NCBI GenBank assembly: GCA_918797485.1
Contig: CAKKNE010000002.1
Location: forward strand, 62,001 to 126,000
DNA: 64,000 bases
Direction of reading: 5' to 3'
Source of the DNA: Pelagomonas calceolata
Lineage: Eukaryota
Shown: positions 5,431 through 46,988 of the stretch, piece by piece
Layout: each line of letters starts with the position of its first letter
Position numbering within the stretch: position 1 is the stretch's first letter
Made by a program: the position numbers and the translations under genes
Notes under the pieces: model-generated
The model's database searches: none
Told to the model about the DNA's origin: nothing
What the model saw: only the letters and a program-made list of their open reading frames with translations

Positions 5431-5805
5431 GGTTGTGTTTTTTTGTGGGAAGGGTAAGTTTGTGACTGACAACTAAATTTAGAATGTGTCGCCGCGGTGA
5501 CGGACGGGATAGCTAGGCTGCAACCTTAATCAGCAAGTTAAGGTGGCCGCAGCCGCTTTTACGTCAGATAGCTTGAATTCGGCCCAGCCCAATATATCTA
5601 ATCAAGTTTTTTCTAAATATAACTATATTTAATTTCATACTCTTCGCAACTCAAGGACAAGGGTTGTGTCTAAATGCAAGTCGCAAAAGACTACTATTTT
5701 ACCCCCCCTTCGATATAACATTATAACAACCATCTTGGTTTGAAGGCCACTTCCAAAAGAGCGCAAAACACAAAGAAAAAACCGGCACTGCCCCCCTGGC
5801 CTACG

Positions 5806-8800
5806 ATGGAGCCAGAGGCCGCACAGGACAGCGACGCGCCCGTCGCGCGCTGTCCGGACGCGCCCATCGAATCGACGGCGCCGCTGTAGTTGCCCTTACG
5901 CTGGCCGCTCGGCCAGTTCCCGCCGGGACGTCAAGTAGTTTCGGCGCCCTTTGAAGGCGACGTAAAAGCCTTATAGTTAATTATTAATGTGGACAAAGAA
6001 GCCAAGAATCCTGACTCCGAAGACGGACTGTGCGCGATTGAAAGTATGGCAAAGAATTTTATATTTCACGCGCGAAATTCCAGTCTATGCCTGTCGCAAA
6101 TAAATGACAGGAATAACGTTGAATTTTAGGAGCTTCCCTGGTCGTGGGAAATATTGGAGCCAAGCTCTCAAGCACCTCGCAAAGGATTGACAATCAAGAA
6201 CGAAACAAATGGTGACCTGCTTCACGACGAAATATTCCTAAATATATGGACTGAATTCTTCGCCGACGTGCCGCCGGTCGACGCTCCGTTGCTAACCACC
6301 GGACTCAATTCCGCGCAACTGCCAATGCTTGCAGTCCGTCTTAGTCAAACTTTTTCGGTCAATGTATCGAGTATGTTCCTACTGGAGCACCCGACGATTC
6401 GCCAAATAGCGAACGCGTTGGAAGATCTACTCTCAGATTCGCCCAAGACATCTGATGCTCCGCATGTCTCTGTTGCGCAGACAGAGTCTCAAAAGAATGT
6501 ATCTCTGGGAAATATCGTATTTCACGCGCCTGGTTCGATGCGGACACCGGCCAGTTTTCGGTTCTCGGTAGAACGCGGCTTGAATTTTGGCTCGCGCGTG
6601 CCGCTGAATCGATGGGACGTGTCGAATACAACTCGCGCCTCGGCGACGTACGGAAACTTTGCCGAGGATATACTCACTCTCCCGCACGGCGATTGGAAGA
6701 TGTCCAAGTCTGAACTACGAAATGTGAATCCGGTACAACTGCTCTTGCTCGAGGCATCACATTCTATGTTTGCTGGACGTCACAAAGCTGACAAAAACGT
6801 GGGCATATTCGTTGGACTCTTCACGAGCTTGCTGACGCCCGGTAGTTCTACCGCCGCCCCGTCGCGGGAACCGCTCGGCATCTACGAAGGCACCGCCAAC
6901 TCTACGTCGATAGCTTCTGGCCGTATCTCGTACGTGCTGGGCTTTACGGGTCCGTGTCTCCCTGTCGATACAGCATGTTCCGCGTCGCTAGTGGCGACTC
7001 ATTTGGCCGCGACCTCACTGCGGCAAAACGAGTGCAGCAGCGCGGGCGTCGTGGCGGGCGGCATTCTCGAAACAGGCTTGCACGCCGCATTTAGCACAGC
7101 TGGTATGCTCTCCGAAACTGGACGATGTCATTCCTTCGATGGTCGTGCGGATGGATATTCCCGCGGCGAGGGTTGCGTGGGCTTCGTGTGCGATACGTCT
7201 GAAGACGGCCCATCGTTAAGAGGCAGTGCTGTCAAGCAAGACGGACCAAGCGCGAGTCTGACAGCACCGAATGGTGCCTCTCAGCGGATGCTCCTTCAGA
7301 GAGTTTCTGAAAGCATAGGAGCCGGGCACGACGTAGTAGCTCTCGAAGCTCACGGCACTGGCACAACGCTCGGAGACCCGGTCGAAATTGGCGCAGCGAG
7401 TGCCGCACTTCGTGGCTCAACAGTCGCGTGCACGTCGATCAAAGGGAACATTGGGCATCTCGAGGCGGCCGCCGCAGTCATCGGTTTGAATTCGTTGCTC
7501 CTATTTCCTCTGTCTTCTATGTTGAATGCTCCTCTCTGCACCTTGCGAAGTATCAATTCGCATCTCAAGTCTCTGAACTTGAACGCGTTTTACTTCTTGA
7601 CAGGACTGGCAAACTTATAGACCTCGGCAAAGAGTCCGGCAAGTTGTGGGCGATTGAGCTCGTTTGGTTATAGCGGAACTATTGCGCACGGGGCACTCGA
7701 AACTTGCAGGTCGGAGTGTAGGACATTTATTCGATCGGCCAAGTCGCTCTACCGTAGCAGGCACATTGTCGCTCCGCGAGCTGAAGTGCCAACGCGGCTG
7801 ACTTGGCTCGCAGAAAAACCGAATAATTTCAGTTCCCCGGTCAATGACACGGTAGTCTTTTCAGGAGTACTCACACCGTCGGCCGAACTGCTCTTCTCGG
7901 ACCACGTCGTCGGGGGAAACATCCTTTTCCCGGGCGTCGGGTACGTGGAAGTGGCGTTCGCCGCTAATCTCGATCGAGCTTCGGTTCTGACTGCTGCCGC
8001 ATTTGTGAGGCCATGCATGCTGCCAAACCCTCGCTTACGAACCTCGAAGCGGTGCGAGTTGCGATGTACGCGACGGGAGACGGGAGGTATTGAGATAGCT
8101 AGTCGGGTCACGGGCTCATCCACAGAAACCAGTTTTGCCTCATGCTTTGTTGGAACTCTCGCGAGCTGTGATGATGCCTCTGGGGTCAAAGCAGCTGCAA
8201 ATCCCTTCATGAAGAGGGAATACGTTGCTTTGGCCAACCAGGATATTGATGCATCTCCTTCTACATGCGCCTCGCTATCAGATGCAGTGCGCTCGTTACT
8301 GCCCTGCTGGCTTCAATGCTCAAAGCTCTCTGAGATCACCAACTTGATAGGCTCGAAGCAGGTTGTTTCTATGTGCGCATCAATGGTCAAGGGGTCTAAT
8401 TGGTGTCGCGGTGGGAGAGCTATCGTTGAGAAGCTCTTGATGCGTTTGGGACTAACCGATTCTGGATCTCGTTCAACGCAGCAGAACAGCAAGTCTCAAG
8501 CATACTTGGACAAACGCAGGGCATTACGACTTTGCAATCCTCTGCAGTCACACGCTTTACCATAGTGGAGCACGAACCCGGCTAATCCACCCCCGATTTG
8601 CAGAAACGGTTTGACACGGAGGTCCACGTGCTTCCAAGATATTGCTCTCACGAGGCCGGGACGGTCAAGACCTTTGGAGCCGCGTTCCATCAACAATGAT
8701 TTCCAACGCAAATAGAACATAGTACGAACTATTTCCGATCACAAATCAGCTGTCCAAATCTAGCGTACTCGTTCGCGTGACAGCCTACTCCAAGAGCTGA

Positions 8801-11800
8801 CCCGCATTGCCTCAGATATCATCGGCACAAAAGTCCCTATTGACTCTCCCTTGATGTCTGTTGGCCTCGACTCTATTGCTGTAACGGATTTTTCGACGCG
8901 AGTGAGTGAACATCTAGACCAGGAGCTTCCTTAGACTCTTGTCTTTGACCACCCGACGCTGCGGTCGATTGCTGACGCTCTGCTAATAAATGATGGCGAG
9001 CCGTAGCCTGTAATGGAAAATATCGAGCCAGTCGCCGTTTAGCAGAGGAGGGAAGCATCTATGGTATCCCACAGAACCATGCAAAATGCGTCTGCCGTCA
9101 TTGACACTACCTCAGCGGCGGTATTGGAGGTTTTAGGGACCAAAGTCACGGTAGATACGCCCCTCATGTCGGCAGGGCTAGATTCAATCGCAGTGACCGA
9201 TTTGGTGAACGTGCTATCTAAGCGTTTTGAGATAGAATTGCCGCCGACGCTCCTGTTCGACCATCCGACAATCGGATCTGTGGCGACTCATATTACCACA
9301 TTATTACCGATGGAAATATCAAAAGAGTCCGTGGTCGAAACGCGAGAAGGAACTTTGACTCCAGCCATAGCAGGCGCAATAGTGGCTCATCCGGCTGCTC
9401 CGCAAGATCAAGTATTCCTTTCATCGCATCGAATGCGCTTTACGTTACCAGGCGCATGTTGTGATGCACTTGGGCTCAGAGAACTTGGTCTTCGAGCGTG
9501 GTCAACTAACTCTCACTGGCCTATCTCACGTTTAGCGGGAATTGAAAGTCCAACGTCGACAGCTGCCTACGGGTCCTTCCTGGCACCCGATGCGTTTGCG
9601 TCGGACGCGGCGTTCTTCGGAATTTCCAGGACGGAGGCTCGGGCTATGGATCCGATGGCGATGCTGGTGCTCGAGACTACCTACGGTGCACTCAGCTCTA
9701 CCTCTCGCGCCGACCTCGCAAACAAGCCTATTGGTTTTTTCCTTGGGTCGTGTGGATGGACAGGAGGTCAAGAAAATGCGTCAAAAATTCCGAAGGCAAC
9801 GTCGGTGTATTCAGGGACCTCCGGCGCGCTGTCCGTGCTGTCCGGTCGCCTCTCGTACACGCTGGGCCTGACGGGCCCGTGCCAGACGACCGACACGGCC
9901 TGCTCGTCGTCGCTGGTTGCCGCGCACCAGGCGGTCTCGGCCCTGAAGCTCGGCGAGAGCCCGGCGGCGGCGGTCGCGGGCGTCGGCGTGCTGACAGTGT
10001 CGGTGTCGGTGGCGTTCTCGGCAGCGGGCATGCTCTCGGCGCTCGGGCGCTGCCACACGTTCGACCGGCGCGCCGACGGGTACTGTAGGGGCGAAGGCTG
10101 CGGGGCGTTCTACTTCTCGACCGAAGCCGACGACGTCGCGGTGTCCGGGACGGCGGTGCAGCAGGACGGGCCGAGCGCGAGCCTCACGGCGCCGAACGGC
10201 ACGTCGCAGCAGCGGCTCATCGAAGCGGTCAAGGCTGGAAGTGGACCATCGCTGGAGGCTCACGGCACGGGCACGGCGCTCGGGGACCCAATCGAGGTAT
10301 GTGCTTACTTCTTATTTCTCTGATAATTTTTGCGTCATTGTAGGTGGGCGCTGCGACGCGGGCGTTGTGCAAGTCGACAGAACATGGTGCCGCAGTGATC
10401 CAGTGCACGTCGCTGAAGTCGAACGTGGGCCACCTGGAGCCGGCGGCAGCGGCAGCGGGCCTGGCGTCGCTTGTTGTGGGGCCGCTGATGGATTCGGTTG
10501 TTGCTGTTAACGCGCAATTGCGCGGGTACGTCTCCTGTGTTTTTTACATAGTTGTCGCTCACATTCTTATGTAGGCTGAACGCGCACCTGTCGTCTATCG
10601 TGTCGTCGAAGCCGTTCCAGATGCCTGTTGACGTAGCTCCACGTACCACAGCTCTCAGCGGTTCGCGACTGAGCTCGTTTGGATTTAGTGGAACCATCGC
10701 CCACGGCGCGTTCAAGCTCGGAAGACAACGCGTATCAATGAGCAATGATTCGAAGTCGCTCTACCGTGGTCGCCGATTTATCACCTCTAGCGAGACGACA
10801 CGGCTGGACTGGCTGCTCGAAGCGCCTGGGCCGCAGGAGCCTCGACCGGACGAGGCCCGTCGTGTTCGGGGCGCTGTCGCCCTCGGCGGAAGCCCTCTTC
10901 TCGCATCACGTTGTCGGTGACACGATTATATTGCCGGGCGTCGGGTACGTCGAGATGGCGTTCGCCGCCAGCTCCAGTCGAGCGCTCACGCCGCGCGTTC
11001 CTGAGGCCGTGCGTGCTGCCCGAGCCTGGTCGAGGCGAGAAGTGCGTGCTGCGATGTACGCGGCGTAGTGGCGCATTGGAGATTGCGAGCGCGAGAGGCA
11101 CTGATTCATCTAGCTTTGCCCGACCGCCGGGACACTCGCGCATAATATTATTGAGAGTGGCGGTCACGCAGAGACAGTAATAGGTCGGAGCTTCAAAGCC
11201 CGTAAGGAATGGTCCATCAAAGCACAGTCTTCACGACGCAATTCGGCGGTGCTGCAAGCTACTTTTGGCCCCAGACCCTATTGCTCGAATTGTCATCGCG
11301 ATCGGGCGGCACCGCGTGGACGTTCGGCGCCAGGAAATTCCTATGCAGTGCCAGCAGGCAATTAAGCCGCAGCACAAGTCTGGCAAATGTATCTGACTAC
11401 CGCAACGTCTTGTGTCAAGCGCGACAGCAATTGTGCAAATCTCTGCGCGGTACAATACTACCGAGGTCGCGCCTGCTTGCGTCTCGCGCACAGAACAACA
11501 AGTGGATTTATTCTTGCAATACCAGCGGTCTTAGACTTGCACAAGTAGAGGCCTCCAGCTTCCGAGAAATGCTCCTGGTTACGGTCGGACCGTCCAAGCC
11601 CCTGTCTGCTGGAAGAGTCCCGCAGCCTACACCGAGCAAACTGCAGAGCAACCTAAGGCTCAAGGAGCCAGCCGCAGCCAAGGGCGGCGCTCGCTCGCAA
11701 AAGGCCCTGCTAGAGGAACTCACCGCCATGGCCGCCGAGGTCACCGGCACAACTATTTCCGCCGATGCGCCCCTTATGTCTGCTGGGCTCGACTCCATCG

Positions 11801-14800
11801 GCGCCACAGAGCTCTCAAACAAAATAAGTGCTCATCTTAACACGGAGCTTTCCCCGACCCTGCTCTTCGATCACCCGTCGCTGCGGTCCATCGCCGACGC
11901 TCTGTCGGTTGACCACGAGACAGAGGGAGTATTGGAGCTCGAGTTTGAGACTACGGCGCAAGAGCCAAGAGATTCGGTGCAACGACCACAACAGAGCGCC
12001 AAGGCGCAAAGCACGCCGGCCATCGTCGAGGCCATCTCGAGCACGCTCTCGGATATTCTTGGGACGACTGTCGCCACAGACGCGCCGCTCATGTCCGTGG
12101 GACTGGATTCGATCTCGGCGACGGAGTTCACGAACGCGCTCGCCGAGAAATTCGACACGGAACTGCCGCAAACGCTCATGTTCGACCAACCGACGATCGA
12201 TGCGATGGCTGGGTTCATCGCGGAGACCACTGAAGCGCCGGTAGCTGCAGCGACCGTCGAGCGAGAGCAAATGCCAACGACAACAATGGCGACGGCCGTG
12301 GCAACGTCTGGACGGGATGCCCGGACCGAGTCTTCCTCGCGTCACGACAGATCAGCTTCACGTTGCCGGGCGGCTGCAATGATCCTACTGCATTGAAGGA
12401 GCTCGGCTTGCGAGCGTGGACGGCCAACTCTCACTGGCCCGTCTCTCGCCTGGCGGCGAATGAGCTGCAAGGAACTTCTGCGGCGTACGGCGCTTTCTTA
12501 GCACCTGATGCATTCAAAGCGGATCCTGTGTTCTTCGGAATTTCCAGGACGGAGGCGCGGGCCATGGACCCGATGGCGATGCTGGTCCTCGAGACGACCT
12601 ACGGCGCGCTCAGCGACTCGAGCTCCAATTCTCGCGCCAAGCTGGCCAACGCGCCCATCGGCTTCTTCCTTGGAGCTGGCGGGTCGACGTTTAGTAAGGG
12701 TTTAGAAACCGCATCGGGAAACGCCACGAAGGCCCCTTCGGTGTACTCGGCGACCTCCGGCGCGCTGTCCGTGCTGTCGGGCCGCCTTTCGTACACGCTG
12801 GGCCTGACGGGCCCGTGCCAGACGACCGACACGGCCTGCTCGTCGTCGCTGGTTGCCGCGCACCAGGCGGTCTCGGCCCTGAAGCTCGGCGAGAGCCCGG
12901 CGGCGGCGGTCGCGGGCGTCGGCGTGCTGACGGTGTCGGTGTCGGTGGCGTTCTCGGCGGCGGGCATGCTCTCGGCGCTCGGTCGGTGCCACACGTTCGA
13001 CCGGCGCGCCGACGGGTACTGTAGGGGCGAAGGCTGCGGGGCGTTCTACTTCTCGACCGAAGCCGACGACGTCGCGGTGTCCGGGACGGCGGTGCAGCAG
13101 GACGGGCCGAGCGCGAGCCTCACGGCGCCGAACGGCACGTCGCAGCAGCGGCTCATCGAAGCGGTCAAGGCTGGAAGTGGACCATCGCTGGAGGCTCACG
13201 GCACGGGCACGGCGCTCGGGGACCCAATCGAGGTATGTGCTTACTTCTTATTTCTCTGATAATTTTTGCGTCATTGTAGGTGGGCGCTGCGACGCGGGCG
13301 TTGTGCAAGTCGACAGAACATGGTGCCGCAGTGATCCAGTGCACGTCGCTGAAGTCGAACGTGGGCCACCTGGAGCCGGCGGCAGCGGCAGCGGGCCTGG
13401 CGTCGCTTGTTGTGGGGCCGCTGATGGATTCGGTTGTTGCTGTTAACGCGCAATTGCGCGGGTACGTCTCCTGTGTTTTTTACATAGTTGTCGCTCACAT
13501 TCCCATGTAGGCTGAACGCGCACCTGTCGTCGATCGTGTCGTCGAAGCCGTTCCAGATGCCTGTTGACGTAGCTCCACGTACCACAGCTCTCAGCGGTTC
13601 GCGACTGAGCTCGTTTGGATTTAGTGGAACCATCGCCCACGGCGCGTTCGAAGCTCGGAAGACAATAGTATCAATGAGCAATGATTCGAAGTCGCTCTAC
13701 CGTGGTCGCCGATTTATCACCTCTAGCGAGACGACACGGCTGGACTGGCTGCTCGAAGCGCCTGGGCCGCAGGAGCCTCGACCGGACGAGGCCGTCGTGT
13801 TCTCGGGGGCGCTGTCGCCCTCGGCGGAAGCCCTCTTCTCGCATCACGTTGTCGGTGACACGATTATATTGCCGGGCGTCGGGTACGTCGAGATGGCGTT
13901 CGCCGCCAGCTCCAGTCGAGCGCTCACAGCCGTCGCGTTCCTGAGGCCGTGCGTGCTGCCCGAGCCTGGTCGAGGCGAGAAGTGCGTGCTGCGATGTACG
14001 CGGCGTAGTGGCGCATTGGAGATTGCGAGCGCGAGAGGCACTGATTCATCTAGCTTTGCCACGTGTTTCGCCGGGACACTCGCGCATAATATTATTGAGA
14101 GTGGCGGTCACGCAGAGACAGTAATAGGTCGGAGCTTCAAAGCCCGTAAGGAATGGTCCATCAAAGCACAGTCTTCACGACGCAATTCGGCGGTGCTGCA
14201 AGCTACTTTTGGCCCCAGACCTCGATTGCTCGAATTGTCATCGCGCATCGGCGGCACCGCGTGGACGTTCGGCGCCAGGAAATTCCTATGCAGTGCCAGC
14301 AGGCAATTAAGCCGCAGCACAAGTCTGGCAAATGCTGTATCTGACTACCGCAACGTCTTGTGTCAAGCGCGACAGCAATTGTGCAAATCTCTGCGCGGTA
14401 CAATACTACCGAGGTCGCGCCTGCTTGCGTCTCGCGCACAGAACAACAAGTGGATTTATTCTTGCAATACCAGCGGTCTTAGACTTGCACAAGTAGAGGC
14501 CTCCAGCTTCCGAGAAATGCTCCTGGTTACGGTCGGACCGTCCAAGCCCCTGTCTGCTGGAAGAGTCCCGCAGCCTACACCGAGCAAACTGCAGAGCAAC
14601 CTAAGGCTCAAGGAGCCAGCCGCAGCCAAGGGCGGCGCTCGCTCGCAAAAGGCCCTGCTAGAGGAACTCACCGCCATGGCCGCCGAGGTCACCGGCACAA
14701 CTATTTCCGCCGATGCGCCCCTTATGTCTGCTGGGCTCGACTCCATCGGCGCCACAGAGCTCTCAAACAAAATAAGTGCTCATCTTAACACGGAGCTTTC

Positions 14801-17800
14801 CCCGACCCTGCTCTTCGATCACCCGTCGCTGCGGTCCATCGCCGACGCTCTGTCGGTTGACCACGAGACAGAGGGAGTATTGGAGCTCGAGTTTGAGACT
14901 ACGGCGCAAGAGCCAAGAGATTCGGTGCAACGACCACAACAGAGCGCCAAGGCGCAAAGCACGCCGGCCATCGTCGAGGCCATCTCGAGCACGCTCTCGG
15001 ATATTCTTGGGACGACTGTCGCCACAGACGCGCCGCTCATGTCCGTGGGACTGGATTCGATCTCGGCGACGGAGTTCACGAACGCGCTCGCCGAGAAATT
15101 CGACACGGAACTGCCGCAAACGCTCATGTTCGACCAACCGACGATCGATGCGATGGCTGGGTTCATCGCGGAGACCACTGAAGCGCCGGTAGCTGCAGCG
15201 ACCGTCGAGCGAGAGCAAATGCCAACGACAACAATGGCGACGGCCGTGGCAACGTCTGGACGGGATGCCCCGGACCGAGTCTTCCTCGCGTCACGACAGA
15301 TCAGCTTCACGTTGCCGGGCGGCTGCAATGATCCTACTGCATTGAAGGAGCTCGGCTTGCGAGCGTGGACGGCCAACTCTCACTGGCCCGTCTCTCGCCT
15401 GGCGGCGAATGAGCTGCAAGGAACTTCTGCGGCGTACGGCGCTTTCTTAGCACCTGATGCATTCAAAGCGGATCCTGTGTTCTTCGGAATTTCCAGGACG
15501 GAGGCGCGGGCCATGGACCCGATGGCGATGCTGGTCCTCGAGACGACCTACGGCGCGCTCAGCGACTCGAGCTCAACCCCGCGCCAAGCTGGCCAACGCG
15601 CCCATCGGCTTCTTCCTTGGAGCTGGCGGGTCGACGTTTAGTAAGGGTTTAGAAACCGCATCGGGAAACGCCACGAAGGCCCCTTCGGTGTACTCGGCGA
15701 CCTCCGGCGCGCTGTCCGTGCTGTCGGGCCGCCTTTCGTACACGCTGGGCCTGACGGGCCCGTGCCAGACGACCGACACGGCCTGCTCGTCGTCGCTGGT
15801 TGCCGCGCACCAGGCGGTCTCGGCCCTGAAGCTCGGCGAGAGCCCGGCGGCGGCGGTCGCGGGCGTCGGCGTGCTGACGGTGTCGGTGTCGGTGGCGTTC
15901 TCGGCGGCGGGCATGCTCTCGGCGCTCGGTCGGTGCCACACGTTCGACCGGCGCGCCGACGGGTACTGTAGGGGCGAAGGCTGCGGGGCGTTCTACTTCT
16001 CGACCGAAGCCGACGACGTCGCGGTGTCCGGGACGGCGGTGCAGCAGGACGGGCCGAGCGCGAGCCTCACGGCGCCGAACGGCACGTCGCAGCAGCGGCT
16101 CATCGAAGCGGTCAAGGCTGGAAGTGGACCATCGCTGGAGGCTCACGGCACGGGCACGGCGCTCGGGGACCCAATCGAGGTATGTGCTTACTTCTTATTT
16201 CTCTGATAATTTTTGCGTCATTGTAGGTGGGCGCTGCGACGCGGGCGTTGTGCAAGTCGACAGAACATGGTGCCGCAGTGATCCAGTGCACGTCGCTGAA
16301 GTCGAACGTGGGCCACCTGGAGCCGGCGGCAGCGGCAGCGGGCCTGGCGTCGCTTGTTGTGGGGCCGCTGATGGATTCGGTTGTTGCTGTTAACGCGCAA
16401 TTGCGCGGGTACGTCTCCTGTGTTTTTTACATAGTTGTCGCTCACATTCTTATGTAGGCTGAACGCGCACCTGTCGTCTATCGTGTCGTCGAAGCCGTTC
16501 CAGATGCCTGTTGACGTAGCTCCACGTACCACAGCTCTCAGCGGTTCGCGACTGAGCTCGTTTGGATTTAGTGGAACCATCGCCCACGGCGCGTTCGAAG
16601 CTCGGAAGACAATAGTATCAATGAGCAATGATTCGAAGTCGCTCTACCGTGGTCGCCGATTTATCACCTCTAGCGAGACGACACGGCTGGACTGGCTGCT
16701 CGAAGCGCCTGGGCCGCAGGAGCCTCGACCGGACGAGGCCGTCGTGTTCTCGGGGGCGCTGTCGCCCTCGGCGGAAGCCCTCTTCTCGCATCACGTTGTC
16801 GGTGACACGATTATATTGCCGGGCGTCGGGTACGTCGAGATGGCGTTCGCCGCCAGCTCCAGTCGAGCGCTCACAGCCGTCGCGTTCCTGAGGCCGTGCG
16901 TGCTGCCCGAGCCTGGTCGAGGCGAGAAGTGCGTGCTGCGATGTACGCGGCGTAGTGGCGCATTGGAGATTGCGAGCGCGAGAGGCACTGATTCATCTAG
17001 CTTTGCCACGTGTTTCGCCGGGACACTCGCGCATAATATTATTGAGAGTGGCGGTCACGCAGAGACAGTAATAGGTCGGAGCTTCAAAGCCCGTAAGGAA
17101 TGGTCCATCAAAGCACAGTCTTCACGACGCAATTCGGCGGTGCTGCAAGCTACTTTTGGCCCCAGGCCTCGATTGCTCGAATTGTCATCGCGCATCGGCG
17201 GCACCGCGTGGACGTTCGGCGCCAGGAAATTCCTATGCAGTGCCAGCAGGCAATTAAGCCGCAGCACAAGTCTGGCAAATGCTGTATCTGACTACCGCAA
17301 CGTCTTGTGTCAAGCGCGACAGCAATTGTGCAAATCTCTGCGCGGTACAATACTACCGAGGTCGCGCCTGCTTGCGTCTCGCGCACAGAACAACAAGTGG
17401 ATTTATTCTTGCAATACCAGCGGTCTTAGACTTGCACAAGTAGAGGCCTCCAGCTTCCGAGAAATGCTCCTGGTTACGGTCGGACCGTCCAAGCCCCTGT
17501 CTGCTGGAAGAGTCCCGCAGCCTACACCGAGCAAACTGCAGAGCAACCTAAGGCTCAAGGAGCCAGCCGCAGCCAAGGGCGGCGCTCGCTCGCAAAAGGC
17601 CCTGCTAGAGGAACTCACCGCCATGGCCGCCGAGGTCACCGGCACAACTATTTCCGCCGATGCGCCCCTTATGTCTGCTGGGCTCGACTCCATCGGCGCC
17701 ACAGAGCTCTCAAACAAAATAAGTGCTCATCTTAACACGGAGCTTTCCCCGACCCTGCTCTTCGATCACCCGTCGCTGCGGTCCATCGCCGACGCTCTGT

Positions 17801-20800
17801 CGGTTGACCACGAGACAGAGGGAGTATTGGAGCTCGAGTTTGAGACTACGGCGCAAGAGCCAAGAGATTCGGTGCAACGACCACAACAGAGCGCCAAGGC
17901 GCAAAGCACGCCGGCCATCGTCGAGGCCATCTCGAGCACGCTCTCGGATATTCTTGGGACGACTGTCGCCACAGACGCGCCGCTCATGTCCGTGGGACTG
18001 GATTCGATCTCGGCGACGGAGTTCACGAACGCGCTCGCCGAGAAATTCGACACGGAACTGCCGCAAACGCTCATGTTCGACCAACCGACGATCGATGCGA
18101 TGGCTGGGTTCATCGCGGAGACCACTGAAGCGCCGGTAGCTGCAGCGACCGTCGAGCGAGAGCAAATGCCAACGACAACAATGGCGACGGCCGTGGCAAC
18201 GTCTGGACGGGATGCCCCGGACCGAGTCTTCCTCGCGTCACGACAGATCAGCTTCACGTTGCCGGGCGGCTGCAATGATCCTACTGCATTGAAGGAGCTC
18301 GGCTTGCGAGCGTGGACGGCCAACTCTCACTGGCCCGTCTCTCGCCTGGCGGCGAATGAGCTGCAAGGAACTTCTGCGGCGTACGGCGCTTTCTTAGCAC
18401 CTGATGCATTCAAAGCGGATCCTGTGTTCTTCGGAATTTCCAGGACGGAGGCGCGGGCCATGGACCCGATGGCGATGCTGGTCCTCGAGACGACCTACGG
18501 CGCGCTCAGCGACTCGAGCTCCAATTCTCGCGCCAAGCTGGCCAACGCGCCCATCGGCTTCTTCCTTGGAGCTGGCGGGTCGACGTTTAGTAAGGGTTTA
18601 GAAACCGCATCGGGAAACGCCACGAAGGCCCCTTCGGTGTACTCGGCGACCTCCGGCGCGCTGTCCGTGCTGTCGGGCCGCCTTTCGTACACTCTGGGCC
18701 TGACGGGCCCGTGCCAGACGACCGACACGGCCTGCTCGTCGTCGCTGGTTGCCGCGCACCAGGCGGTCTCGGCCCTGAAGCTCGGCGAGAGCCCGGCGGC
18801 GGCGGTCGCGGGCGTCGGCGTGCTGACGGTGTCGGTGTCGGTGGCGTTCTCGGCGGCGGGCATGCTCTCGGCGCTCGGTCGGTGCCACACGTTCGACCGG
18901 CGCGCCGACGGGTACTGTAGGGGCGAAGGCTGCGGGGCGTTCTACTTCTCGACCGAAGCCGACGACGTCGCGGTGTCCGGGACGGCGGTGCAGCAGGACG
19001 GGCCGAGCGCGAGCCTCACGGCGCCGAACGGCACGTCGCAGCAGCGGCTGATCGAAGCGGTAAAGGCTGGAAACGGACCATCGCTGGAGGCGCACGGCAC
19101 GGGCACTGCGCTCGGGGACCCGATCGAGGTGCGTGCTTCCTTCTTTACTTTTCTCTCATAAATTCTGTGTCATTGTAGGTGGGAGCCGCGACGAGAGCGT
19201 TGTGCAAGTCGACAGACCATGGTAGTGTAGCAATCCAGTGCACGTCCCTGAAGTCGAACGTGGGCCACTTGGAGCCGGCGGCCGCAGCCGCAGGCCTGGC
19301 CTCGCTGGTGGTAGGGCCGCTGATGGCCTCGGTCGTTGCTGTGAATGCGCAGTTGCGCGGGTACGTCTCCTGTGTTTTTTACATAGTTCTCGCTCACATT
19401 CCCATGTAGGCTGAACGCGCACCTGTCGTCGATCGTGTCGTCGAAGCCGTTCCAAATGCCCGTTGACGTGGTCTCACGCACGATAGCATCAAACGGCTCG
19501 CGACTGAGCTCGTTTGGGTTCAGTGGCACTATTGCGCACGGGACGTTTGATTCATCACTCGGGCATGCGCAAGCAGCACATCACGAAACAAACAAAACAG
19601 CCTCGCTGTGTCGCCGGAAGTTTCATTCTTCAACAATAATCAAGCCAGTGTAGCAAAGTGGGCCCCTTTGGTCTTACATCCAGAATCAACATGATACTCC
19701 AGCCGCAGAATCCAGAACTGGTGCATTAGCCGTGGTGCGACTTGCAGTACAAGAGACTCTGGGCTTCGAGGTTGATGTGAATGCTCCGCTGATGTCTGTT
19801 GGAGTTGATTCGCTGCAGGCGACTGACCTGACAACTTTACTAACAGCTCGCCTTGGTACAGAATTGGAACCGACCGTGCTATTTGACCACCCGACAATTG
19901 ACTAGTTAGCGAAATTTGTAGCTAGCTAATATTCCGTAGATGACAGAACTACTAATGAGGCTCCCAAAAGTCTCTGGGATCTGTACTCACAACTGAGGGA
20001 AAAGAAATCTGAAATGTTTGTACCGTCAGGTGCAAAGTCTGCGAAACGAGCTGCTGTTTTGTTCGCTTTCCCTGGCTCTGGCTCTAAACACCTTATATCG
20101 TGCCTCGGTGCTCACCAGCATTTGTGCGTTTGCGAAGACCTCTGTCTCATGCCATTCAAAACCGTAGTCGAGCGGAACGAGGTCCTATCTTCCAGGAAAG
20201 ACAACCTCCAAGATGGGTTGGTTGACACCGTTACGACTCTGCGTAATTGCAGGATGCCCGATATATGTCACCTCTTTGGTACGGTGGCAAGCACATATCG
20301 TGCACTACAAGAATGGTGTGCCCCTCGAATTTTAGTCGACGGAACAGAAGCCTACTCTGCCGTGCCCCAACGGTCTTTGACCGAAGCGAAAAATGTCTTC
20401 CTAGACCCAGACATCGTGCACTTGCTTCGAGATCCGAGAGGATGCTTGGGTGATGAGCAACAATCAGGTGATATCGCAGAGCTCGAGAAAAGGTGGCTCA
20501 AATTTACAAAATACATGCTGCAACTCGACAGGACAGGTGTGTCTGAAATCAGATATGAGGACCTAGAGGGGGCTCTACGTGAGATTTCGTTGCGCCTTCT
20601 AATTCCTAATCTTGACTTGGTCATTCATGTTTCCAAGCATTCAAGGGAATAAATATACGAAGGACCACTCCAAAGCGACACTCAATCGATCGCATGGGGC
20701 CTTGGATATCAACTCTCATTGAAAAACAATGGGACTAGTCCTACTATTCTTATCTAACAAGATGCTATACGCAACGTCGCCATTTGGTTGCAAAAAGGGG

Positions 20801-21630
20801 ACATTAGTAAACCCACACTGGTAGTTCTCCATGCTCTATTTGGCATGCAAGTGGGTTCTCCTTATCTGCCTTGTTTTCCAGACGATATGCCGGTGGTGGC
20901 ACTTCAGGCCCCTGAACTAATTGAACACACTGTCATTGGTAGCATTCGTGAGCGTGCCATATATTACCGCAACATCCTGATTTCTCTGTTAGATGGACGC
21001 AAGCCAATCGTTCATATTTTCGGGTTGTCCTTTGGGGGACCTTTGGCCTTTGAACTAGCTATTTCTCTACAACATAGTCCGCTGAACTGCGGATCCCTAT
21101 GTTTGTCCGACCCCCCTCCCTTTTGCCTGCCCTCTAAGTCCACAACAAGCACGTTGACAATGAGAGCTCGATTCTACGATTTCTGCTTCGCAGTTGCAAT
21201 TTCCAAACAGACAAACTTTCAAGGTGGGGTCTAGGTTAAGGACATAAAATGCCCGGCTGATCTTGAAAGACTCGTCTTTTCGGCAGCTCCTGAATCTCTT
21301 GCAAGGGAATTTTCGCAGATAGTTGACTTCATGCTGAAGGCTGGAAGCGAACTCCAAACACTAGATTGCTCTGCAAATCGCGAGAAGTACACAGGCCCAT
21401 GTGCCTTCCTGAAGACAGGGGAAGGCGTTTAGTATTTTAAGGAGAGAGGATTTGTGGAAAGTACGGAAGACCCAGATGGGCTTTATGGATGGAGTCGCGC
21501 CCTTTGCAGCCCTCCATTAAAAGTGGTCAGCCTTGCCTGTGGTCACAATTACATGACAACTCATGCAGATTCAGTTGCCAAGATAGCGTCGACTATTCTC
21601 ATGCTGTATCAAATTGTCTCAGACGACTAA
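5806..21630 (+). other. PKS assembly line A: ACP(GLNS)-KS1-DH*-ACP-ACP-[KS-DH*-ACP-ACP]x3-KS5-ACP-ST-TE
   Basis: KS at ~6500, 9420, 12340, 15290, 18240. ST at 20014-20650 ([16 protein letters not shown]...EDLCLMPF, CurM-like). TE at 20788-21600 (GLSFGG; LACGH). TAA at 21628 may or may not terminate. Confidence 0.85.
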
Positions 21631-30600: not shown

Positions 30601-33600
30601 TCTCGGCCAGCGGTGGCGCCTTATCTGTCACAGCGGGCCGGCTCTCGTTCAGCCTCGGCCTCGTCGGACCGTGCTACTCGATCGACGCAGCGTGCGCGTC
30701 CTCCCTGGCGGCACTCCACGCGTGTGTCACGACGCTATAGAATGGCAAAGAATGCGATGATGGCGTGACGATTGGCACCAAGGTGCTCAGCGAAGCCACA
30801 AACTACGCGACCTCGATCGGCGGCATGACGTCAGCGCGTGGACGGTGCCACACGTTCGACCAGCGGGCGGACGGCTACTGTCGCGGCGAAGGCTGCGGCG
30901 CGTTTCTCGTGCGATCAAAAGCATCGGCTGGCGTGGATGTGCTGGGGTCTGCCGTACAGTAAGACGGCCCGAGCGCAAGCCTGACGGCGCCAAACGGATC
31001 ATCTCAGAGGCGGCTGATCGAGAGCGTATCGCTGTGTAATCATGACAAAAACGGAAAGTTGAGTCTGGAGGCGCACGGCACCGGGACGGCGCTCGGTGAT
31101 CCCATCGAGGTACGTTACTATTTCTAGTCAATTCTATAACAATTGGCGTTTGTAGGTGGGAGCTGCTGTTCGCGCTCTTTGCTCCGAATCAACGCATGTA
31201 CAGTGCACATCTCTGAAGTCGAACCTGGGCCACCTGGAGGCGGCCGCGGCGGCTGCGGGCCTGTCATCGCTGATCGTCGGGCCTCTGTTGGCGGGATCTG
31301 TCGCCATCAACGCGCAGCTACGCGGGTACGTTCTTAGCTCGTGTTTATTATAATTCTGACATCCTTATTTTAGGCTGAACGTGCATTTGTCATCAATTGT
31401 GGCGTCGAAGTCGTTCCAGATGCCCGTTGAAGTTCTGCCTCGCGCTACGTACACCTAGCGGGCGTCTCGACTGAGTTCGTTTGGCTTCAGCGGGACCATT
31501 GCGCACGGGGCGTTTGGCGTTCAGAAGCACGAGGGATTTGACAAATCGATCACTTCCCCTGCTAGCTCGCTCTATCGTACGCGTAGTTTATGGCAAGGAC
31601 TTCAGGGGAAGCATTTTAGGCGCGTCGCAGTAGCCCGTAGGTCACATAGAGAAGTATGCAATGGCATGGAAGCAAAGTCGGCAATGTATTGCAAAGAGCA
31701 GAGATTAACACTAGCAGACTACTCTTGCAGGAATCAAACGACCTTGGATCTGTCGGGATCCTCAGGAACGAGTAGCTCTAAGACAACAAAATTGGAAGAT
31801 GCGTGGAAATTACGGGATCGCACATGTAGCTGGGCTCCTATTGGGCTGAATTGCAATGGCCCTGATAACGAGCTTCGGAGTGTGATCTACCCTGAGCCCA
31901 CGTATGCGCCCTTTCCGCAGGCCTCGAGCTCGAAACTTGATCTGCCAGGCGGTTTCCATCACCCTCAAAGCAGTCTCGTGCTGATGGCGGGCGAATCAAA
32001 TCTAGGAAGCCACAACTTCTCAAATCAGTTGCAGAGAATCTCATCTGTTGTGGTTGAGACGGGGGCACGGGCAGTTGGGGGATCTGTGCTAAACATCGAG
32101 CTGCCGCTGATAACAGAATCGATGAAGCGAGACGACATTGGCGGCGAATTGCTTGCTGGCATGTTGCGTTCCACGAATCTGGAGGTACTTCACAACACCA
32201 CGCTCCAAATGTTCCCCGGTGAGCCCTAAAGTCAAACTGCGCAACGACCGCAAAACAACGCCGATAATCTACTCGCAACGGTGGCTAGTTCGACCGATAC
32301 TGAGCGATCATCCCACAGCAGCCGGCCTCCCTCTGCTACAATTGATTCTCTCAAGACTGTCCGCATTGTAGCCCACGAGGTCATCGGTAAGGAAATCGAG
32401 ATAAGCGTCCCGCTGATGTCTGCTGGTCTGGACTCACTTCTAGTGACAGAATTTGTCAGCGCGCTTGCCACGCGTGTGGGCATAGAAGTTGCGCCTACCG
32501 CCCTGTTTGACTATCCAACGCTGGAGTCGCTCGCCGGTTTCATATCAGACGAGCTCGCTAGCGCAATGGTGGTTAGTTTGACCGATACTGGTGATGTGCG
32601 ATCGCTCAACAACAGCCGGACACCCTCTACTACGATTGATTTTCTCAAGACTGTCCGCATCGTAGCTCATGAGATCATGGGTGAGGAAATCGATATGAGT
32701 GCCCCACTGATGTCAGCTGGACTGGATTCACTCGTAGTGGCGGAATTTGCCAGCACTCTGTCTACGCGCGTAGGCATAGAAGTTGCGCCCACCGCCCTGT
32801 TCGACCATCCAACGCTGGAGTCGCTCGCCGGTTTCATAGAAGACGAGCTTAGTAGCAACGATGTGACCAACGTATCACACAGTGGAGAAGCTCAATGGGT
32901 AGCAGCACATGTGCCGGTTATCGGCACAAGAGAAGAGCGCACTATCTCCATTGCTGCCTGGGACTTCACGCTTGCTGGAGGGATCACCACTCCGTCAGAG
33001 TTGCGCTCGCTCACGATGCGTGCTCTCACCGTGAACACCGACGTCCCACTCGCACGATGGGCGACTCCGACGCCCGGTGCCAAGCCATCGGCAGCCTACG
33101 GATCGTTCATGACTTCGGATCAGCTCTCTCTCGACCACGGGGCCTTTGGCATTTCCCTCGCCGAGGCGCGGTCGATGGACCCACAGCAGGGTCTCGTACT
33201 GAGTGTTGGGTACAGTGTGCTGCGCCAATGTAGTGATTTCTCCTCCTCACGAAGTTCATTCACCAACTCCAACGTGGGAGTCTTCGTCGGCGTGGAGTCA
33301 AGTGGACTCGAGAGGAAAGAAGCGAGTGTGTTCTCGGCCAGCGGTGGCGCCTTATCTGTCACAGCGGGCCGGCTCTCGTTCAGCCTCGGCCTCGTCGGAC
33401 CGTGCTACTCGATCGACGCGGCATGCGCGTCAACGCTGGCGGCGCTGCACGCATGTGTCACGACGCTCCAGAATGGCAAAGAATGCGATGATGGCGTGAC
33501 GATTGGCACCAAGGTGCTCAGCGAAGCCGCAAACTACGCGACCTCGATCGGCGGCATGACGTCAGCGCGTGGACGGTGCCACACGTTCGACCAGCGGGCG

Positions 33601-39600: not shown

Positions 39601-42600
39601 GCCGGGTCCCTACGACATGACTGGTATCACCTACTCGGCGGCCGGCGCGCGCCTGTCGTACGTGTTCGCGATGCGCGGCCCGTGCATGGTGTTTGACACG
39701 GCCTGCTCGTCGAGCCTGATCGCCATGCATGCCGCGAGGCGTAGCATGCAACATAACGAGTGCCCACTCGCTCTTACTATTGGGCCGAACGCAATACTGC
39801 ACCCCAGCGCTCACGTGGGCCCGGCGCTGACGGGCATGACGTCGATTCGCGGACGGTGCCACACCTTTGACGCGCGAGCGGACGGCTACCTGCGTGGCGA
39901 AGGCTGTGGGGCGGTGGTGCTCGAGACTGAGCAACGTGGCAACCATGTCTCGTGTCTAGGCTCGTCGGCCCGGCACAACGGACAGAGCGCGACGTTCACG
40001 GCACTAAACGGGCTATCACAGCAGCTGTTGATCAAGGCCGCGCTGAGCGATGCCTCGACCACGATAGGAACCGTGATGGAAGCCCACGGCACCGGAACAG
40101 GCCTCGGTGATCCGATCGAGATCAGTTCAATCTCGGCGATCGTCAAGAAGAGTGGCCACAAGTCCTGCTCCGTCTGCGCCATAAAGGGGAACGTCGGCCA
40201 TACGGAGTCGACCGCCGGCGTGGCGAACGTCATCGAAGTGATCGGGTTGCTGAAGCTAGGAGAGATGGCGCTCAACGTGCAGCTCCGCACGCTTAACCCA
40301 CAAGTCCGGCAAGTGCGCGCCGAGGTACTGCATTCCTCGGTCGATACCAATCCGATGTACAGGGGTAAAACGCAGACGGGCGGCGCGAGTTCCTTTGGGT
40401 GGAGCGGCATCATCGCCCACGGGGTGTTCCGGTACGAGAGATCTGGCACAACCAAGTCGGAGGAACGTACCCTCGCGAGTGCTTCGCTCTATCGGAACAG
40501 TTTGCACCTTGTGCGTCGTTCTGATGACGGGCCCTCGCGGCTGAGGTGGCTTGCGGTTACACCAGAGGTGCGTCAGTCACTGACCAACGATGCGGTCATT
40601 TTCTCGGGCGCTCTTGCACCCGCGACAGTAGCTTTCCTCTCGCATCACGTCGTTGGCGGTAGCATTCTACTTCCAGGCGTCAGTTTCATCGAGATGGCAT
40701 TTGCTGCCAGTCCTGGCCATGCTAGTCTCACAGCAATCGCTTACCTGAGACCGTGCTCGCTTCCAAGTCCCACAGACAGATCCGGTGAACGGTGCGTGCT
40801 GCGATGTATGCAACGCGGCGCCGCGCTTGAGATTGCGAGCCAGAGAATTGGGGCAAAATAGGAACCAGGACCATTTGCGGCAAATTTTGTCGGGACTCTT
40901 GCTAGCCAAAGGACGGTAGATACTACAACGGAGCGTCTTCATTCGTCCCGCACGCATCGCATACCTGCGCCCCAGCCCTACTCTGGCAGCGGCTTGATCA
41001 ATTTGGGTGTGGCAAGGCAGCACCTTGTTGGAAGCGCACGATTCATCAGTATGAGGAGGTCACATTATTCAGGTCATCAGATGACCCGTTGTGGCCACGC
41101 ACGTGCTGCCTGGGACAAAGCTCCGAAACAACCTCGACGGCGCCTCGGAAGATCTTGCAAGGTCCCACTGATGTGCGTGCCTCAAGCGTGGAGCACCAAG
41201 CCGGCCTACCCTCGCTCAGTATGCGATCAGGGTGGTCTAGCCAGCTTCCCTGCGAGCTTCCAGGACTTAGCTCTGGTAACTGCAGGAACGCGTAAGGCCC
41301 CATTGCGAACCACTCAGAGGAAGCAAGCTCGCCCCACAGCTACGTTGCGAAGTGTAAATAAGCGCAAGGTGGCTCGCAGTACCCGGTCGAGCGCCACCTT
41401 GCTGAACGAACTAAAACATATCGCTTCCGAGGTCATCAACAAGGACGTCTCCGTCGACGCGCCCCTTATGGAGGCAGGGCTCGACTCCATTAGTGGTACA
41501 GAACTCTCAAACAAGATAAGCGCTCATCTTAACACAGAGCTTTCCCCGACCCTGCTTTTCGATCACCCGTCGCTGCGGTCCATCGCTGATGCTTTGTCGC
41601 TGACCTCTGGCTCGTCACCAACGCAAGGGCCCGAGCCTGAGTAGGAAGTGCCAGCGCAACTTACTGTGGCGCGAGAGGTCCCGAAAAGAGCGATCTCGCA
41701 GACATCAGGGAACGCCGTACAGAGCATAGCTGGTATTGTCAAAAGCTTGCAGACTACCCTGTTGGGAATTGTAGGAAAGACCGTGGCGGCAGACGCGCCG
41801 CTCCTGTCGGCCGGCCTGGATTCGATCTCCGGGACAGAGTTTACAAACACATTGGCCCAGCAATTCGAGATAGAGCTGCCGCCGACGCTGATGTTCGACT
41901 ATCCAACAATTGACTCGATGGCAGGCTTCATCGCGGAGGCGGTGCCAACAATGACGCTAGTCGAAGCGGTGACGGAGTAAAATGAGCTTATGCTAAAATC
42001 AGACGACGAGGCTCCAAAAGATGTCTGGGATCTGTACTCGGAACTGAAGCATGAAAAGACAGATAAATCGTTCGTGCCAACAGCGGCAAAATCTGCGAGA
42101 CAAGCTGCTGTTTTGTTCAGTTTCACAGGTTCTGGCTCTAAACACCTTATATCGTGCCTCGGTGCTCACCAGCATTTGTGCGTTTGCGAAGACCTCTGTC
42201 TCATGCCATTCAAAACCGTAGTCGAGCGGAACGAGGTCCTATCTTCCAGGAAAGACAACCTCCAAGATGGGTTGGTTGACACCGTTACGACTCTGCGTAA
42301 TTGCAAAATGCCCGATATATGTCACCTCTTTGGTACGGTGGCAAGCACATATCGTGCACTACAAGAATGGTGTGCCCCTCGAATTTTAGTCGACGGAACA
42401 GAAGTCTACTCTGCCGTGCCCCAGTGGTCTTTGACCGAAGTGAACAATGTCTTCCTAGACCCAGACATTGTGCACTTGCTTCGAAATCCAAGAGAGTGCT
42501 TTGGCGAAGCTCAAGTGTCATGTGATATGGTAGAACTCTAGCAACAGTGGGTGAAATTCACGAAATACATGCTGTAACTTGAAGGGACAGACGTCTTGGA

Positions 42601-43768
42601 AATCAGATACGAGGACCTCAAATCGGCAGTCCGTGCGATAACTTCATGCCTTTCAATCCCTGCTTATGATTTGGTTCTGGATGATGCTCAGTATGAAACG
42701 GGAAATATATACGACGGGCCACTCCAAGGTGACACCTGTGCTATTACTTGGCGCCTTGGCTACAGCCTATCACGAGATAACATGAGAAAATATAGTTTTG
42801 TAAATCCAAAAGCAATACAGGGAGTTGTTCTCTGGCGACGCAAAGGTGACCCATCGAAACCAGTCGTGGTATTTCTTAATGGGGTCTCGGGATTGGCGGG
42901 GGGGGGGGAGCTTCAGTCTCAGCTCCCGGACGATGTGCCAATGATTTCAATTCAAGCACCTGACTTGACTACCAACGTTTCCATGAAAAACATCACGGAA
43001 CGCGCCGCCTATTACTTAAGATGTCTTGTTGTTGAATTACATGGTCGCTACCCGTCTATCCTCCTTGTTGGTTATTCTGGTGGTGGCCCGCTGGCATTCG
43101 AAATTGCCCTGCAAGCAAAGACCAGCTCATTGAAATGTAAAATATGCATGGTTGACCCAGCCCCTTATTGTCCTATGAACAATATCGGATAGAGCTATTT
43201 GATGCAACGCGCGCAGAATTACGACCTTTTCTTCGGGTTCCTACTTCGCAAACAGACAAGCTTCAGGCAAGCAGTTTCCCTGAACGATATATCCAGCGTT
43301 GGCCAGCTCGAACAAAATGTACTGTTAGCCGCCCCATCTGAGCATCTTGCTTGCGAGCTTTCAAGCATCGTCGACACTGCAATAAAACAAACTATGGAGA
43401 TTGCGGCTCGCGATCTTTCTCCTGATCGGTAATATCTTGGTCCATGTGCACTCTTGAAAGCTGACCCCGATTATTTCATTGGAGGTGGGATGAGTGAAGA
43501 TGACGTTCACCACCCCGACGGAGTCTACGGATGGAGTCTTCCCCTCAGCTGCCCTGGCATGAAAGCGATACCACTTTCGTGTGACCATCTGAACATTTTC
43601 AAGGATGGCGAGGCCTTGAGCCAAGTGACAGCGACAATCCTATCTTTACTTAATACGGAATCGATCGGTGAACCACGGCCTCAGAATTCTGACCCTGAAC
43701 TACACAGTGCCGAGCAAGTCAACATCTTGCCAAACATCATCACCAAGTACTAGAAGCGGTCTGATTGA
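5806..43768 (+). CDS. Giant AT-less modular type I PKS locus (12 KS, ~23 ACP, DH-like domains, 2x ST-TE); continuous frame only if TAG/TAA are read as sense; otherwise a pseudogene or two genes
   Basis: ATG 5806 is in frame with all downstream ORF fragments once introns are removed. KS triads DTACS/DAACA/DVACA, EAHGTGT and GHLE/GHTE are intact; ACP motif GLDS; DH motif HVVG..ILxPGVGY. About 48 in-frame TAR codons; first in-frame TGA at 43766-43768. Confidence 0.75.
9815..19470 (+). repeat. Tandem array of ~2.95-kb near-identical PKS module (about 3.3 copies)
   Basis: Homologous intron donors at 10297, 13233, 16180 and 19129 (spacing 2936, 2947, 2949); translated ORFs on both strands recur almost verbatim. 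Confidence 0.97.
10297..37434 (+). other. 16 short GT-AG introns at two fixed positions in KS2-5 and KS8-11
   Basis: GDPIE|VGAA introns: 10297-10343, 13233-13279, 16180-16226, 19129-19178, 28615-28665, 31110-31155, 33841-33886, 37154-37202. QLRG|LN introns: 10526-10574, 13462-13510, 16409-16457, 19361-19409, 28842-28906, 31326-31373, 34057-34104, 37385-37434. Splicing restores KS motifs. Confidence 0.93.
21631..43768 (+). other. PKS assembly line B: ACP(GLNS)-KS6-DH*-ACP2-KS7-ACP-KS8-ACP-KS9-ACP2-KS10-DH*-ACP2-KS11-DH*-ACP2-KS12-DH*-ACP2-ST-TE
   Basis: KS at ~22450, 25350, 27720, 30210, 32940, 36250, 39200. ST at 41990-42700. TE at 42830-43650 (GYSGGG; LSCDH). Confidence 0.85.
21903..23910 (+). 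repeat. Duplicate of 5953-7960 (loading ACP-KS region)
   Basis: ORFs 6154..7620 and 22102..23571 are nearly identical, and the upstream sequence gtaaaagccttatagttaattattaatgtgg is shared. Confidence 0.95.
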
Positions 43769-46907: not shown

Positions 46908-46929
46908 GAGAAGTCGATATGCGAGCCAT

Positions 46930-46988
46930 CCGCGCCCATGACGCGCGGCAGGGACATGTCTAGTTCCTGCCGTGCCGACCTGCGCCGG
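46930..46988 (+). promoter_or_regulatory. SECIS element candidate
   Basis: gcgc-cc-ATGAC-gcgcggcaggga-catgtctag-ttcctgccgtgc-CGAC-ct-gcgc: AUGA/GA non-Watson-Crick core, ~12-bp helix II and helix I, ~25 nt after the stop. Confidence 0.8.

Follow-up and report, generated by a model that had tools for sequence, protein, structure and literature searches.

Probable reading of UAA and UAG as glutamine in a giant polyketide synthase gene of Pelagomonas calceolata

Known recoding systems and the polyketide synthase locus

In this study we analysed a giant polyketide synthase (PKS) gene of the picoalga Pelagomonas calceolata, at 5806..43768 of the window, that is, of the whole 64,000-nucleotide stretch examined (contig CAKKNE010000002.1, positions 62,001 to 126,000, assembly GCA_918797485.1). 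The frame of this gene contains many TAG and TAA codons (TAR in DNA, UAR in RNA), which are probably read as Gln. Nuclear codes listed as NCBI translation table 6, in ciliates, Dasycladales/Cladophorales and diplomonads, use UAA and UAG for Gln genome-wide and keep UGA as the sole stop. Within the PKS the same assignment seems to hold, with UGA as the only stop. The difference lies outside it: the neighbouring Utp11, CPSF100 and VDE (violaxanthin de-epoxidase) genes end at TAA or TAG, and the neighbours are free of internal TAR.

A second kind of system is found in Condylostoma magnum, Parduczia, Blastocrithidia and Amoebophrya sp. ex Karlodinium, where, as here, the same codon can be stop or sense with no local motif (PMC4967479). 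However, internal stops in these organisms are spread over the genes and include UGA, whereas here, of the genes tested, a single one has them, and they never include UGA. Phages, crAss-like and others, with TAG as Gln in late or lysis genes also recode a subset of genes in a standard-code cell, and an expression switch was proposed for them (10.1101/2021.08.26.457843). These are bacterial viruses with their own suppressor tRNA, in contrast to the PKS, which is a spliced nuclear host gene that uses both UAA and UAG and has no tRNA gene nearby.

In selenoprotein P, up to 22 UGA codons can be redefined with the help of elements close to the start codon and to the first UGA and of others in the 3' untranslated region (UTR) (PMC5727441). 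As is proposed for the PKS, many stops of a single mRNA are read as sense there in a nucleus that otherwise uses the standard code, and conserved elements near the start and the first stop play a part. In contrast, the PKS uses UAA and UAG, apparently for ordinary Gln, at 47-48 sites over 37 kb without internal UGA, its sites swap freely with CAA and CAG (CAR), and Rfam gives 0 matches at E<=1 in 43500-47500. Compared with recoding by a selenocysteine insertion sequence (SECIS), restriction to a marked mRNA with several sites is shared, as judged against the neighbours. The use of UGA for selenocysteine is not (0 internal TGA, and UAR faces Gln). With regard to a cis element, the 5' head of the gene is conserved in sequence and lacks covariation, and the available relatives do not reach the 3' UTR.

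Programmed readthrough of a single site was rejected, given 48 sites, a flat +4 context and lineage-specific turnover. No pelagophyte precedent was found in the literature searched, which included PMC10366177, 10.1101/2024.10.30.620910 and 10.1101/2025.04.21.649811 and had most subscription papers outside its scope. The main text of the P. calceolata genome paper (PMC9481584) makes no mention of stop, polyketide, genetic code or tRNA. If translation through the stops holds, the recoding of the PKS would be new, fitting none of table 6, an ambiguous code (locally), editing, single-site readthrough or selenocysteine insertion.

The reading frame and the residue behind its stop codons

The main features of the gene, from a table 6 domain scan and a search for intron patterns, are as follows.

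5806..43768, forward strand: giant trans-AT type I PKS, ~12,390 codons when spliced
9493..19550, forward strand: GC-rich tandem array of ~2.95-kb KS-DH-ACP-ACP units, 95-97% alike, with no in-frame TAR
19957..21630, forward strand: internal sulfotransferase-like and thioesterase pair, paralogue of 42002-43700; the frame runs on through TAA 21628
42002..43700, forward strand: terminal sulfotransferase-like and thioesterase domains; CurM sulfotransferase match at E 2.6e-7; TAA 43430 precedes the thioesterase His at 43580
10297-10343, 13233-13279, 16180-16226, 19129-19178, 28615-28665, 31110-31155, 33841-33886 and 37154-37202, forward strand: type A introns, after DPIE
10526-10574, 13462-13510, 16409-16457, 19361-19409, 28842-28906, 31326-31373, 34057-34104 and 37385-37434, forward strand: type B introns
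43751..43768, forward strand: last TAG (43751) and first in-frame TGA (43766), followed by an AT-rich stretch with AATAAA at ~43825-43860

Translation with table 6 gives 12 ketosynthase (KS) domains, about 23 acyl carrier proteins (ACP), eight N-terminal halves of dehydratase (DH) domains and two ends composed of sulfotransferase-like (ST) and thioesterase (TE) domains. No acyltransferase (AT), ketoreductase (KR) or enoylreductase (ER) domain was found in the frame by the scan. A preliminary description of this DNA, made from the letters alone, had proposed a megasynthase of ~12,400 aa with intact active sites. The length agrees with the spliced frame and the scan returns PKS modules along it, with the KS Cys/His/His present in 11/11 in-frame KS, 19 ACP Ser motifs, and Ser and His in both TE. 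By its KS/ACP modules, kept catalytic residues and lack of an integral AT, the predicted protein fits the trans-AT type I modular class, and its product is predicted to be a ~12,400-aa assembly line with CurM-like ST-TE release modules. The likeness to the CurM ST presumably points to release of the terminal-alkene type, with the caveat that alignment to CurM shows the Arg of the PAPS loop replaced by Gly.

The closest long homologues are PKSs of Aureococcus, Bathycoccus and Chrysophaeum (34-44%). KS-DH-ACP modules without AT are shared with the giant trans-AT PKSs of these algae, and the ST-TE end with CurM/OLS, the ST matching CurM. The window PKS differs in that KR and ER were not found, DH is present as its N-terminal half only and the PAPS loop has Gly; the homologues are standard-code models of 3,500-4,200 aa. 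The linkers and the N-terminal 146 aa match no credible Pfam family, and no relative of the ST-TE end was found in viral contigs. A motif SRxASSLxVPQEDSxCGDGP occurs three times in the linkers (21721-21790, 34900-34960 and 35010-35070), with no family match.

In the published annotation, 11 listed models (Pca_2p00420-00540) come after VDE (Pca_2p00410) and before JmjC/CCA and Utp11 (rows of the PMC9481584 supplement). This order matches the window, with the 11 models in the place of the PKS, and the gene has therefore been split by gene calling, as the preliminary description expected of standard gene callers. One such piece, CAH0367055.1 of P. calceolata, is a 371-aa PKS fragment whose end is the position of TAG 30738.

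A GT-AG pattern search identified 16 introns of 46-65 nt, two per module in eight modules, the same number as counted earlier. Once they are removed, the frames 5806-~10,700 and ~15,600-43,766 contain neither internal TGA nor frameshift. A total of 34 TAG and 14 TAA, 48 codons altogether, and 0 internal TGA were counted in 10,790 spliced codons, which reproduces the earlier count; every TAR coordinate listed in the preliminary description is a TAR codon. The same codons include 169 CAA, 192 CAG, 69 TGG and 125 CGA; in the 28-kb segment, 196 and 190 TGA interrupt the two remaining forward frames. Under neutral stop gain by single-base changes from the PKS's own codons, 27-30% of new stops would be TGA, and zero TGA among ~44 independent stop sites has P ~2e-7 to 7e-7. 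The base at +4 after TAR shows no preference (12/11/13/12).

The first in-frame TGA lies at 43766, as described before, though TAG 43751, five codons upstream, could be the true stop. TAR codons near the end of the gene stand 5, 112 and 192 codons before the TGA. Frameshifts are confined, again as described, to two units of the tandem array, with 13 gap events in 10575-13461, located to 10713-12319, and 2 at 15573-15576. Read against an intact unit, both contain 0 TAR and 0 TGA in 950 codons each, and their frameshifts are likely assembly errors.

To identify the residue, the gene was compared with eight metagenome loci (L001-L008), which represent six distinct genotypes, L003, L004 and L006 being one. 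In these alignments the codon opposite a window TAR is TAR in 30 and CAR in 19 of 52 cases. Orthologue pairs show 16 CAR/TAR exchanges vs 20 shared TAR, above the synonymous CTR/TTR benchmark and far above the single exchanges of TAR with each of TGG, GAR, AAR and TAY; TCR exchanges with TAR seven times. The C-terminal ends of shorter homologues were also mapped. Of 76 mappable ends, 24 directly precede a window TAR and 29 a window CAA or CAG (53/76; background 3.7%); they come from the 120 best shorter homologues (322 matches, 7,994 scored), which are protein records with the stop codon unseen and are not independent. With any module allowed, the figure is 60/79 at 24 sites.

An outside profile was built from a 50%-cluster search, dominated by distant multimodular PKSs and with the TE domain left out. 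It scores TAR best as Gln (10.0), with His next (7.1), over 17 non-independent positions. One TAR site in a conserved motif is the following.

30960..30962, forward strand, and the same in 33691: TAA at the conserved KS Gln before DGxS, between the catalytic Cys and His; Gln in 296/335 motifs of long homologues

The preliminary description had reported Gln at many TAR sites in paralogous modules. This stands for nine of the 28 alignable sites, with the others of the 48 falling outside alignment; TAG 19903 faces Ser or Ala in twelve ACP paralogues. Overall the 28 sites face Gln in nine cases, TAR in eight, Ser in seven, Glu in five, and Trp or Tyr in none. Many TARs are located in variable linkers or opposite other residues, which would be true of any Gln codon in such places.

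Transcripts, wild relatives and neighbouring genes

The stretch 19420-29400, or part of it, is contained in 20 of 24 listed sequencing runs. DNA contigs of run X5 (depth ~200) show no other letter across 13 TAR sites, so the absence of CAR there is no assembly artefact. X5 is possibly the source sample itself; X11 belongs to a different study and is likewise without differences at TAR sites. A loose end of X5 at window 25787 corresponds to further KS-like sequence elsewhere in the genome.

Raw polyA reads of X23 and X24, which are one sample, cover 30/30 and 27/30 bins of 19560-32600 and are mostly sense (250 and 181 reads placed, from ~6% of each run). The four introns in 28615-31373 are spliced out in these reads and in RNA contigs. 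The contigs of X1, X8 and X12, from three studies, and of X11 show 22 differences in the full table, none of them at any of 11 TAR sites; the RNA nature of the X1, X8 and X12 contigs rests on their splice joints, the run label being an automatic guess. In the X8 contig both introns at 28.6-28.9 kb are spliced and 1,448 nt follow, with two UAA kept:

28962..29138, forward strand: TAA 28962 and TAA 29136, unedited in the doubly spliced X8 contig, which has 0 other letters over 28906-30353

UAA 30960/33691 and UAG 31456/34187 are likewise present in X1, X8 and X12 contigs from which the introns at 31110 and 31326 have been removed. The PKS is therefore transcribed and spliced more than 23 kb beyond its first stop, and the majority of its RNA is unedited. 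Reads and spliced contigs thus confirm that the transcript extends past the first TAG, and U-to-C editing, which the preliminary description had offered as its alternative to decoding, is ruled out as the majority form in the conditions sampled, RNA and DNA being the same at the stops. Two unspliced forms were also observed: an unspliced 2.5-kb contig of X1 at 28356-30869 (depth 126, beside spliced ones at ~25), and the intron 28842-28906, which holds a GTTC repeat, retained in X12. They may represent either intron retention or DNA carry-over.

Selection on the frame was estimated with TAR columns left out. The ratio of non-synonymous to synonymous substitution rates (dN/dS) against syntenic orthologues is 0.16-0.28 at dS 0.29-0.44, and 0.32 for L008. 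Between the modules in the window it is 0.16-0.37, away from the value near 1 that would speak for decay, and on the window's terminal branch 0.12 (55 synonymous and 19 non-synonymous changes). All compared divergence lies downstream of TAG 5887, which is common to every covering relative. The VDE-PKS synteny is kept in L004-L006, and all 18 coding indels of L001, L002 and L007 have lengths divisible by three. The relatives' loci contain 41 TAG, 16 TAA and 1 TGA in 8,439 aligned codons, and new TARs arise separately in different lineages. The preliminary description had named randomly different stops, TGA among them, and frameshifts in relatives as signs of decay; such lesions appear singly in two of the six genotypes, which bears this out in part. 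In L008 (2460-3521), a diverged paralogue or orthologue does not end with the ST-TE: an acyl-CoA synthetase domain of the acetyl-CoA synthetase-like kind follows, with a TAG inside it; the frame has 6 TAR and no TGA in 1,084 codons. The internal TAG beyond the ST-TE therefore marks a second TAR-using PKS architecture in wild relatives.

Three neighbouring genes served as controls for termination.

4183..5430, forward strand: VDE, ending in TAG in the window and in L004-L006, with unconserved sequence after it
49012..49695, forward strand: Utp11; the Pfam profile stops at the last residue, followed by TAA
58567..59454, reverse strand: last exon of CPSF100; the profile stops 3 residues before TAA

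In 12 local neighbour stretches, delimited as standard-code frames, there are 0 TAR vs 95 CAR (Fisher p 5e-5); the mis-framed min49693 was left out, and the Utp11 stretch is four codons short (one more CAA). TAA and TAG thus appear to terminate translation in the neighbours and to be read as sense in the PKS, the same codon being used both ways in one genome as far as its sequence tells.

Further features of the window concern other genes. A ~370-bp repeat (71-81% alike) at 362-738, 3392-3764 and 50534-50878 gives three unrelated low-GC genes, including a flavin monooxygenase (1764-3602, reverse strand), their common N-terminal leader (MVPRSKK-type) and is possibly a mobile element carrying captured genes. 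The low-GC, TAG-rich intergenic stretch 56400-57330, possibly a decayed transposon piece, has no Pfam match in the frames scanned.

Mechanism, competing explanations and meaning

The view that UAR is a sense codon in the PKS, probably Gln, holds in the contigs, dN/dS, CAR/TAR exchange, the outside profile and the neighbours. Judging from these comparisons, we consider it probable, if well short of certain, that the mRNA is translated from end to end, UAA and UAG being read as Gln and termination being left to UGA or the last UAG. The neighbouring genes, for their part, end at UAA or UAG. TAR turns over at many Gln positions without local context, and a signal would therefore act on the whole transcript and not per site. 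A candidate for such a signal lies at the 5' end.

5793..5937, forward strand: hyperconserved 145-nt 5' head with the start codon, 27 codons and the first in-frame TAG (5887); candidate cis element

Four-fold sites of this head are changed in 1/25 vs 180/627 elsewhere in L004, and in 1/24 vs 181/698 in L005. The first 44 codons with 13 nt upstream form the most conserved four-fold window of the compared region (3/69 changed, median 25%). Searches found no second copy of the head in the window and nothing matching it among prokaryote genome contigs. Of three 3' windows that were folded, only 43900-44049 stood out (z -2.9), and it lies beyond the likely poly(A) region.

In a scheme like that of selenoprotein P, a cis element would mark the PKS mRNA, on which a tRNA-Gln, either a cognate suppressor or near-cognate, would outcompete eRF1 at ~98-99% per site. 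The best candidate element would be the 5' head, whose invariant TAG (codon 28) would serve as a gate; the role of the head is the weakest step and only possibly correct. We put forward tentatively, as one possibility, that two genetic codes coexist in one nucleus, the 5' element and gatekeeper UAG licensing UAA and UAG as Gln over 37 kb, hiding a 1.3-MDa PKS and acting as an on/off switch. In yeast, premature stops can be read as Gln by tRNA-Gln, and how efficiently this happens varies with the transcript context (PMC13192750). A Sep15/SelM-family gene at 46548-46907 (forward strand) has an in-frame TGA (CPG-U-KL; Pfam E 2.4e-15 with TGA as selenocysteine), and gene-specific recoding machinery therefore exists in the alga. 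It is followed at 46925-47030 by a stable hairpin region (z -2.8), a candidate SECIS with no Rfam match.

Several points weigh against end-to-end translation and its proposed signal. Full length needs very high readthrough (0.95^47 = 0.09; 0.99^47 = 0.62), and we know of no eukaryotic Gln mechanism of such efficiency. The 5' head shows no compensatory pairs (0/43, four sequences) and an ordinary folding energy (z -1.13), and synonymous constraint at a 5' end has other causes too. The gene is weakly expressed (depth ~1-3 in 6% of each raw run), and no single RNA piece spans it; 209 raw-read difference rows lay outside the comparison, and editing of a minority of transcripts may occur. At 19/28 alignable TARs no paralogue has Gln. 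The neighbour control is local and pre-delimited, not genome-wide, and the frameshifts of the array units are known from the assembly alone. Among the relatives, three assemblies of the L003/L004/L006 genotype agree on a 1-nt deletion near window ~7313, within the first KS, and TAC, TGG and AAA/GAA codons have turned into TARs in that genotype; L005 has one TGA (L005 1843) derived from an Arg codon. Branch dN/dS is raised for both (0.25, 0.29). These lesions may denote recently dead copies, a possible recent gene loss in the sister clade, or weak constraint.

Alternatively, suppression could be gated by the state of the cell, such as stress, infection or the sexual stage: with a suppressor tRNA-Gln induced or eRF1 activity lowered, UAR would become readable cell-wide, and the PKS would be made only then. 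This rather unlikely explanation would account for site turnover without a cis element, for the low steady expression and for the invariant early TAG as an off-switch, and the switch proposed for recoded late phage genes is a precedent (10.1101/2021.08.26.457843). However, near-complete readthrough in the whole cell would extend the essential Utp11, CPSF100 and VDE, which end in TAA or TAG. ARAGORN found 0 tRNA in the 64-kb window, and eRF1 has one entry (Pca_2p19350) among the annotation rows listed.

A genome-wide ambiguous code of the Condylostoma type, with UAR as Gln unless near the poly(A) tail and other genes avoiding TAR through high G+C at third codon positions (GC3), is unlikely. TAR in the PKS does depend on GC3, with 1 TAR vs 81 CAR at GC3 >= 0.70 and 47 vs 280 below, a short 3' UTR is plausible, and the code has a precedent (PMC4967479). 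Yet the four neighbour stretches with GC3 < 0.65 contain 0 TAR vs 50 CAR (p 0.001), and the final 800 codons of the PKS are not depleted (7 TAR vs 32 CAR). Homologues of the neighbouring Dispatched gene run for 600-800 aa up to an intron with ~20-28 Gln each, and 0/18 mappable ends stand before Gln. The standard-code annotation represents each of three further multidomain PKS genes by a single model (rows of the PMC9481584 supplement).

Stage-specific or minority U-to-C editing that restores CAA and CAG seems very unlikely. TAR exchanges chiefly with CAR, one C/T step away, contigs lose rare variants, and fungi have stage-specific restorative editing, as A-to-I (PMC10776026). Nevertheless, none of the sites covered by the spliced contigs of three studies is edited. 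CGA/TGA exchanges would be tolerated under editing as well, yet there are 0 of them among 46 shared CGA. Editing would predict more exchange of CAY/TAY and CCN/TCN than observed (0.07 and 0.03 vs 0.29), and quick site turnover is difficult for site-specific editors.

It is highly improbable that the locus is a transcribed pseudogene, or encodes short proteins by termination and reinitiation, under CpA-biased mutation resembling repeat-induced point mutation (RIP). In its favour are the single frameshift and single TGA in two related genotypes, the unverified array frameshifts and the low expression. The low dN/dS of the window's branch downstream of shared stops and the in-frame indels of the three loci argue against decay, as does the absence of TAG opposite Trp in window paralogues. 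RIP is contradicted by a TpA/ApT of 0.65-0.67, the same as in the neighbours, and by the repeats being the TAR-free part. As for short proteins, 9/47 inter-stop fragments have no Met, and TAA 30960/33691 split the KS between Cys and His. A RIP-mutated or unitary pseudogene was thus rejected on dN/dS far from 1, few TGA or frameshifts and no TpA excess, the two related genotypes being the exception. Assembly artefact or foreign code-6 DNA has a negligible chance: independent DNA and RNA runs and metagenome relatives agree, host-type introns are spliced, synteny with VDE is kept, the nearest long homologues are Aureococcus PKSs and TARs arise anew in different lineages.

If true, the reading of UAA and UAG as Gln in the PKS would mean a nuclear gene with its own genetic code inside a standard-code eukaryote, in which stop-to-Gln sites drift like synonymous codons. 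It would require a novel way of disabling eRF1 recognition for one transcript, in a cultured and globally abundant picoalga, and would bear on premature-stop readthrough and on the origin of stop-codon reassignment, as a gene-limited intermediate. For genome mining it would mean that giant biosynthetic genes of this kind get split into small models or labelled pseudogenes.

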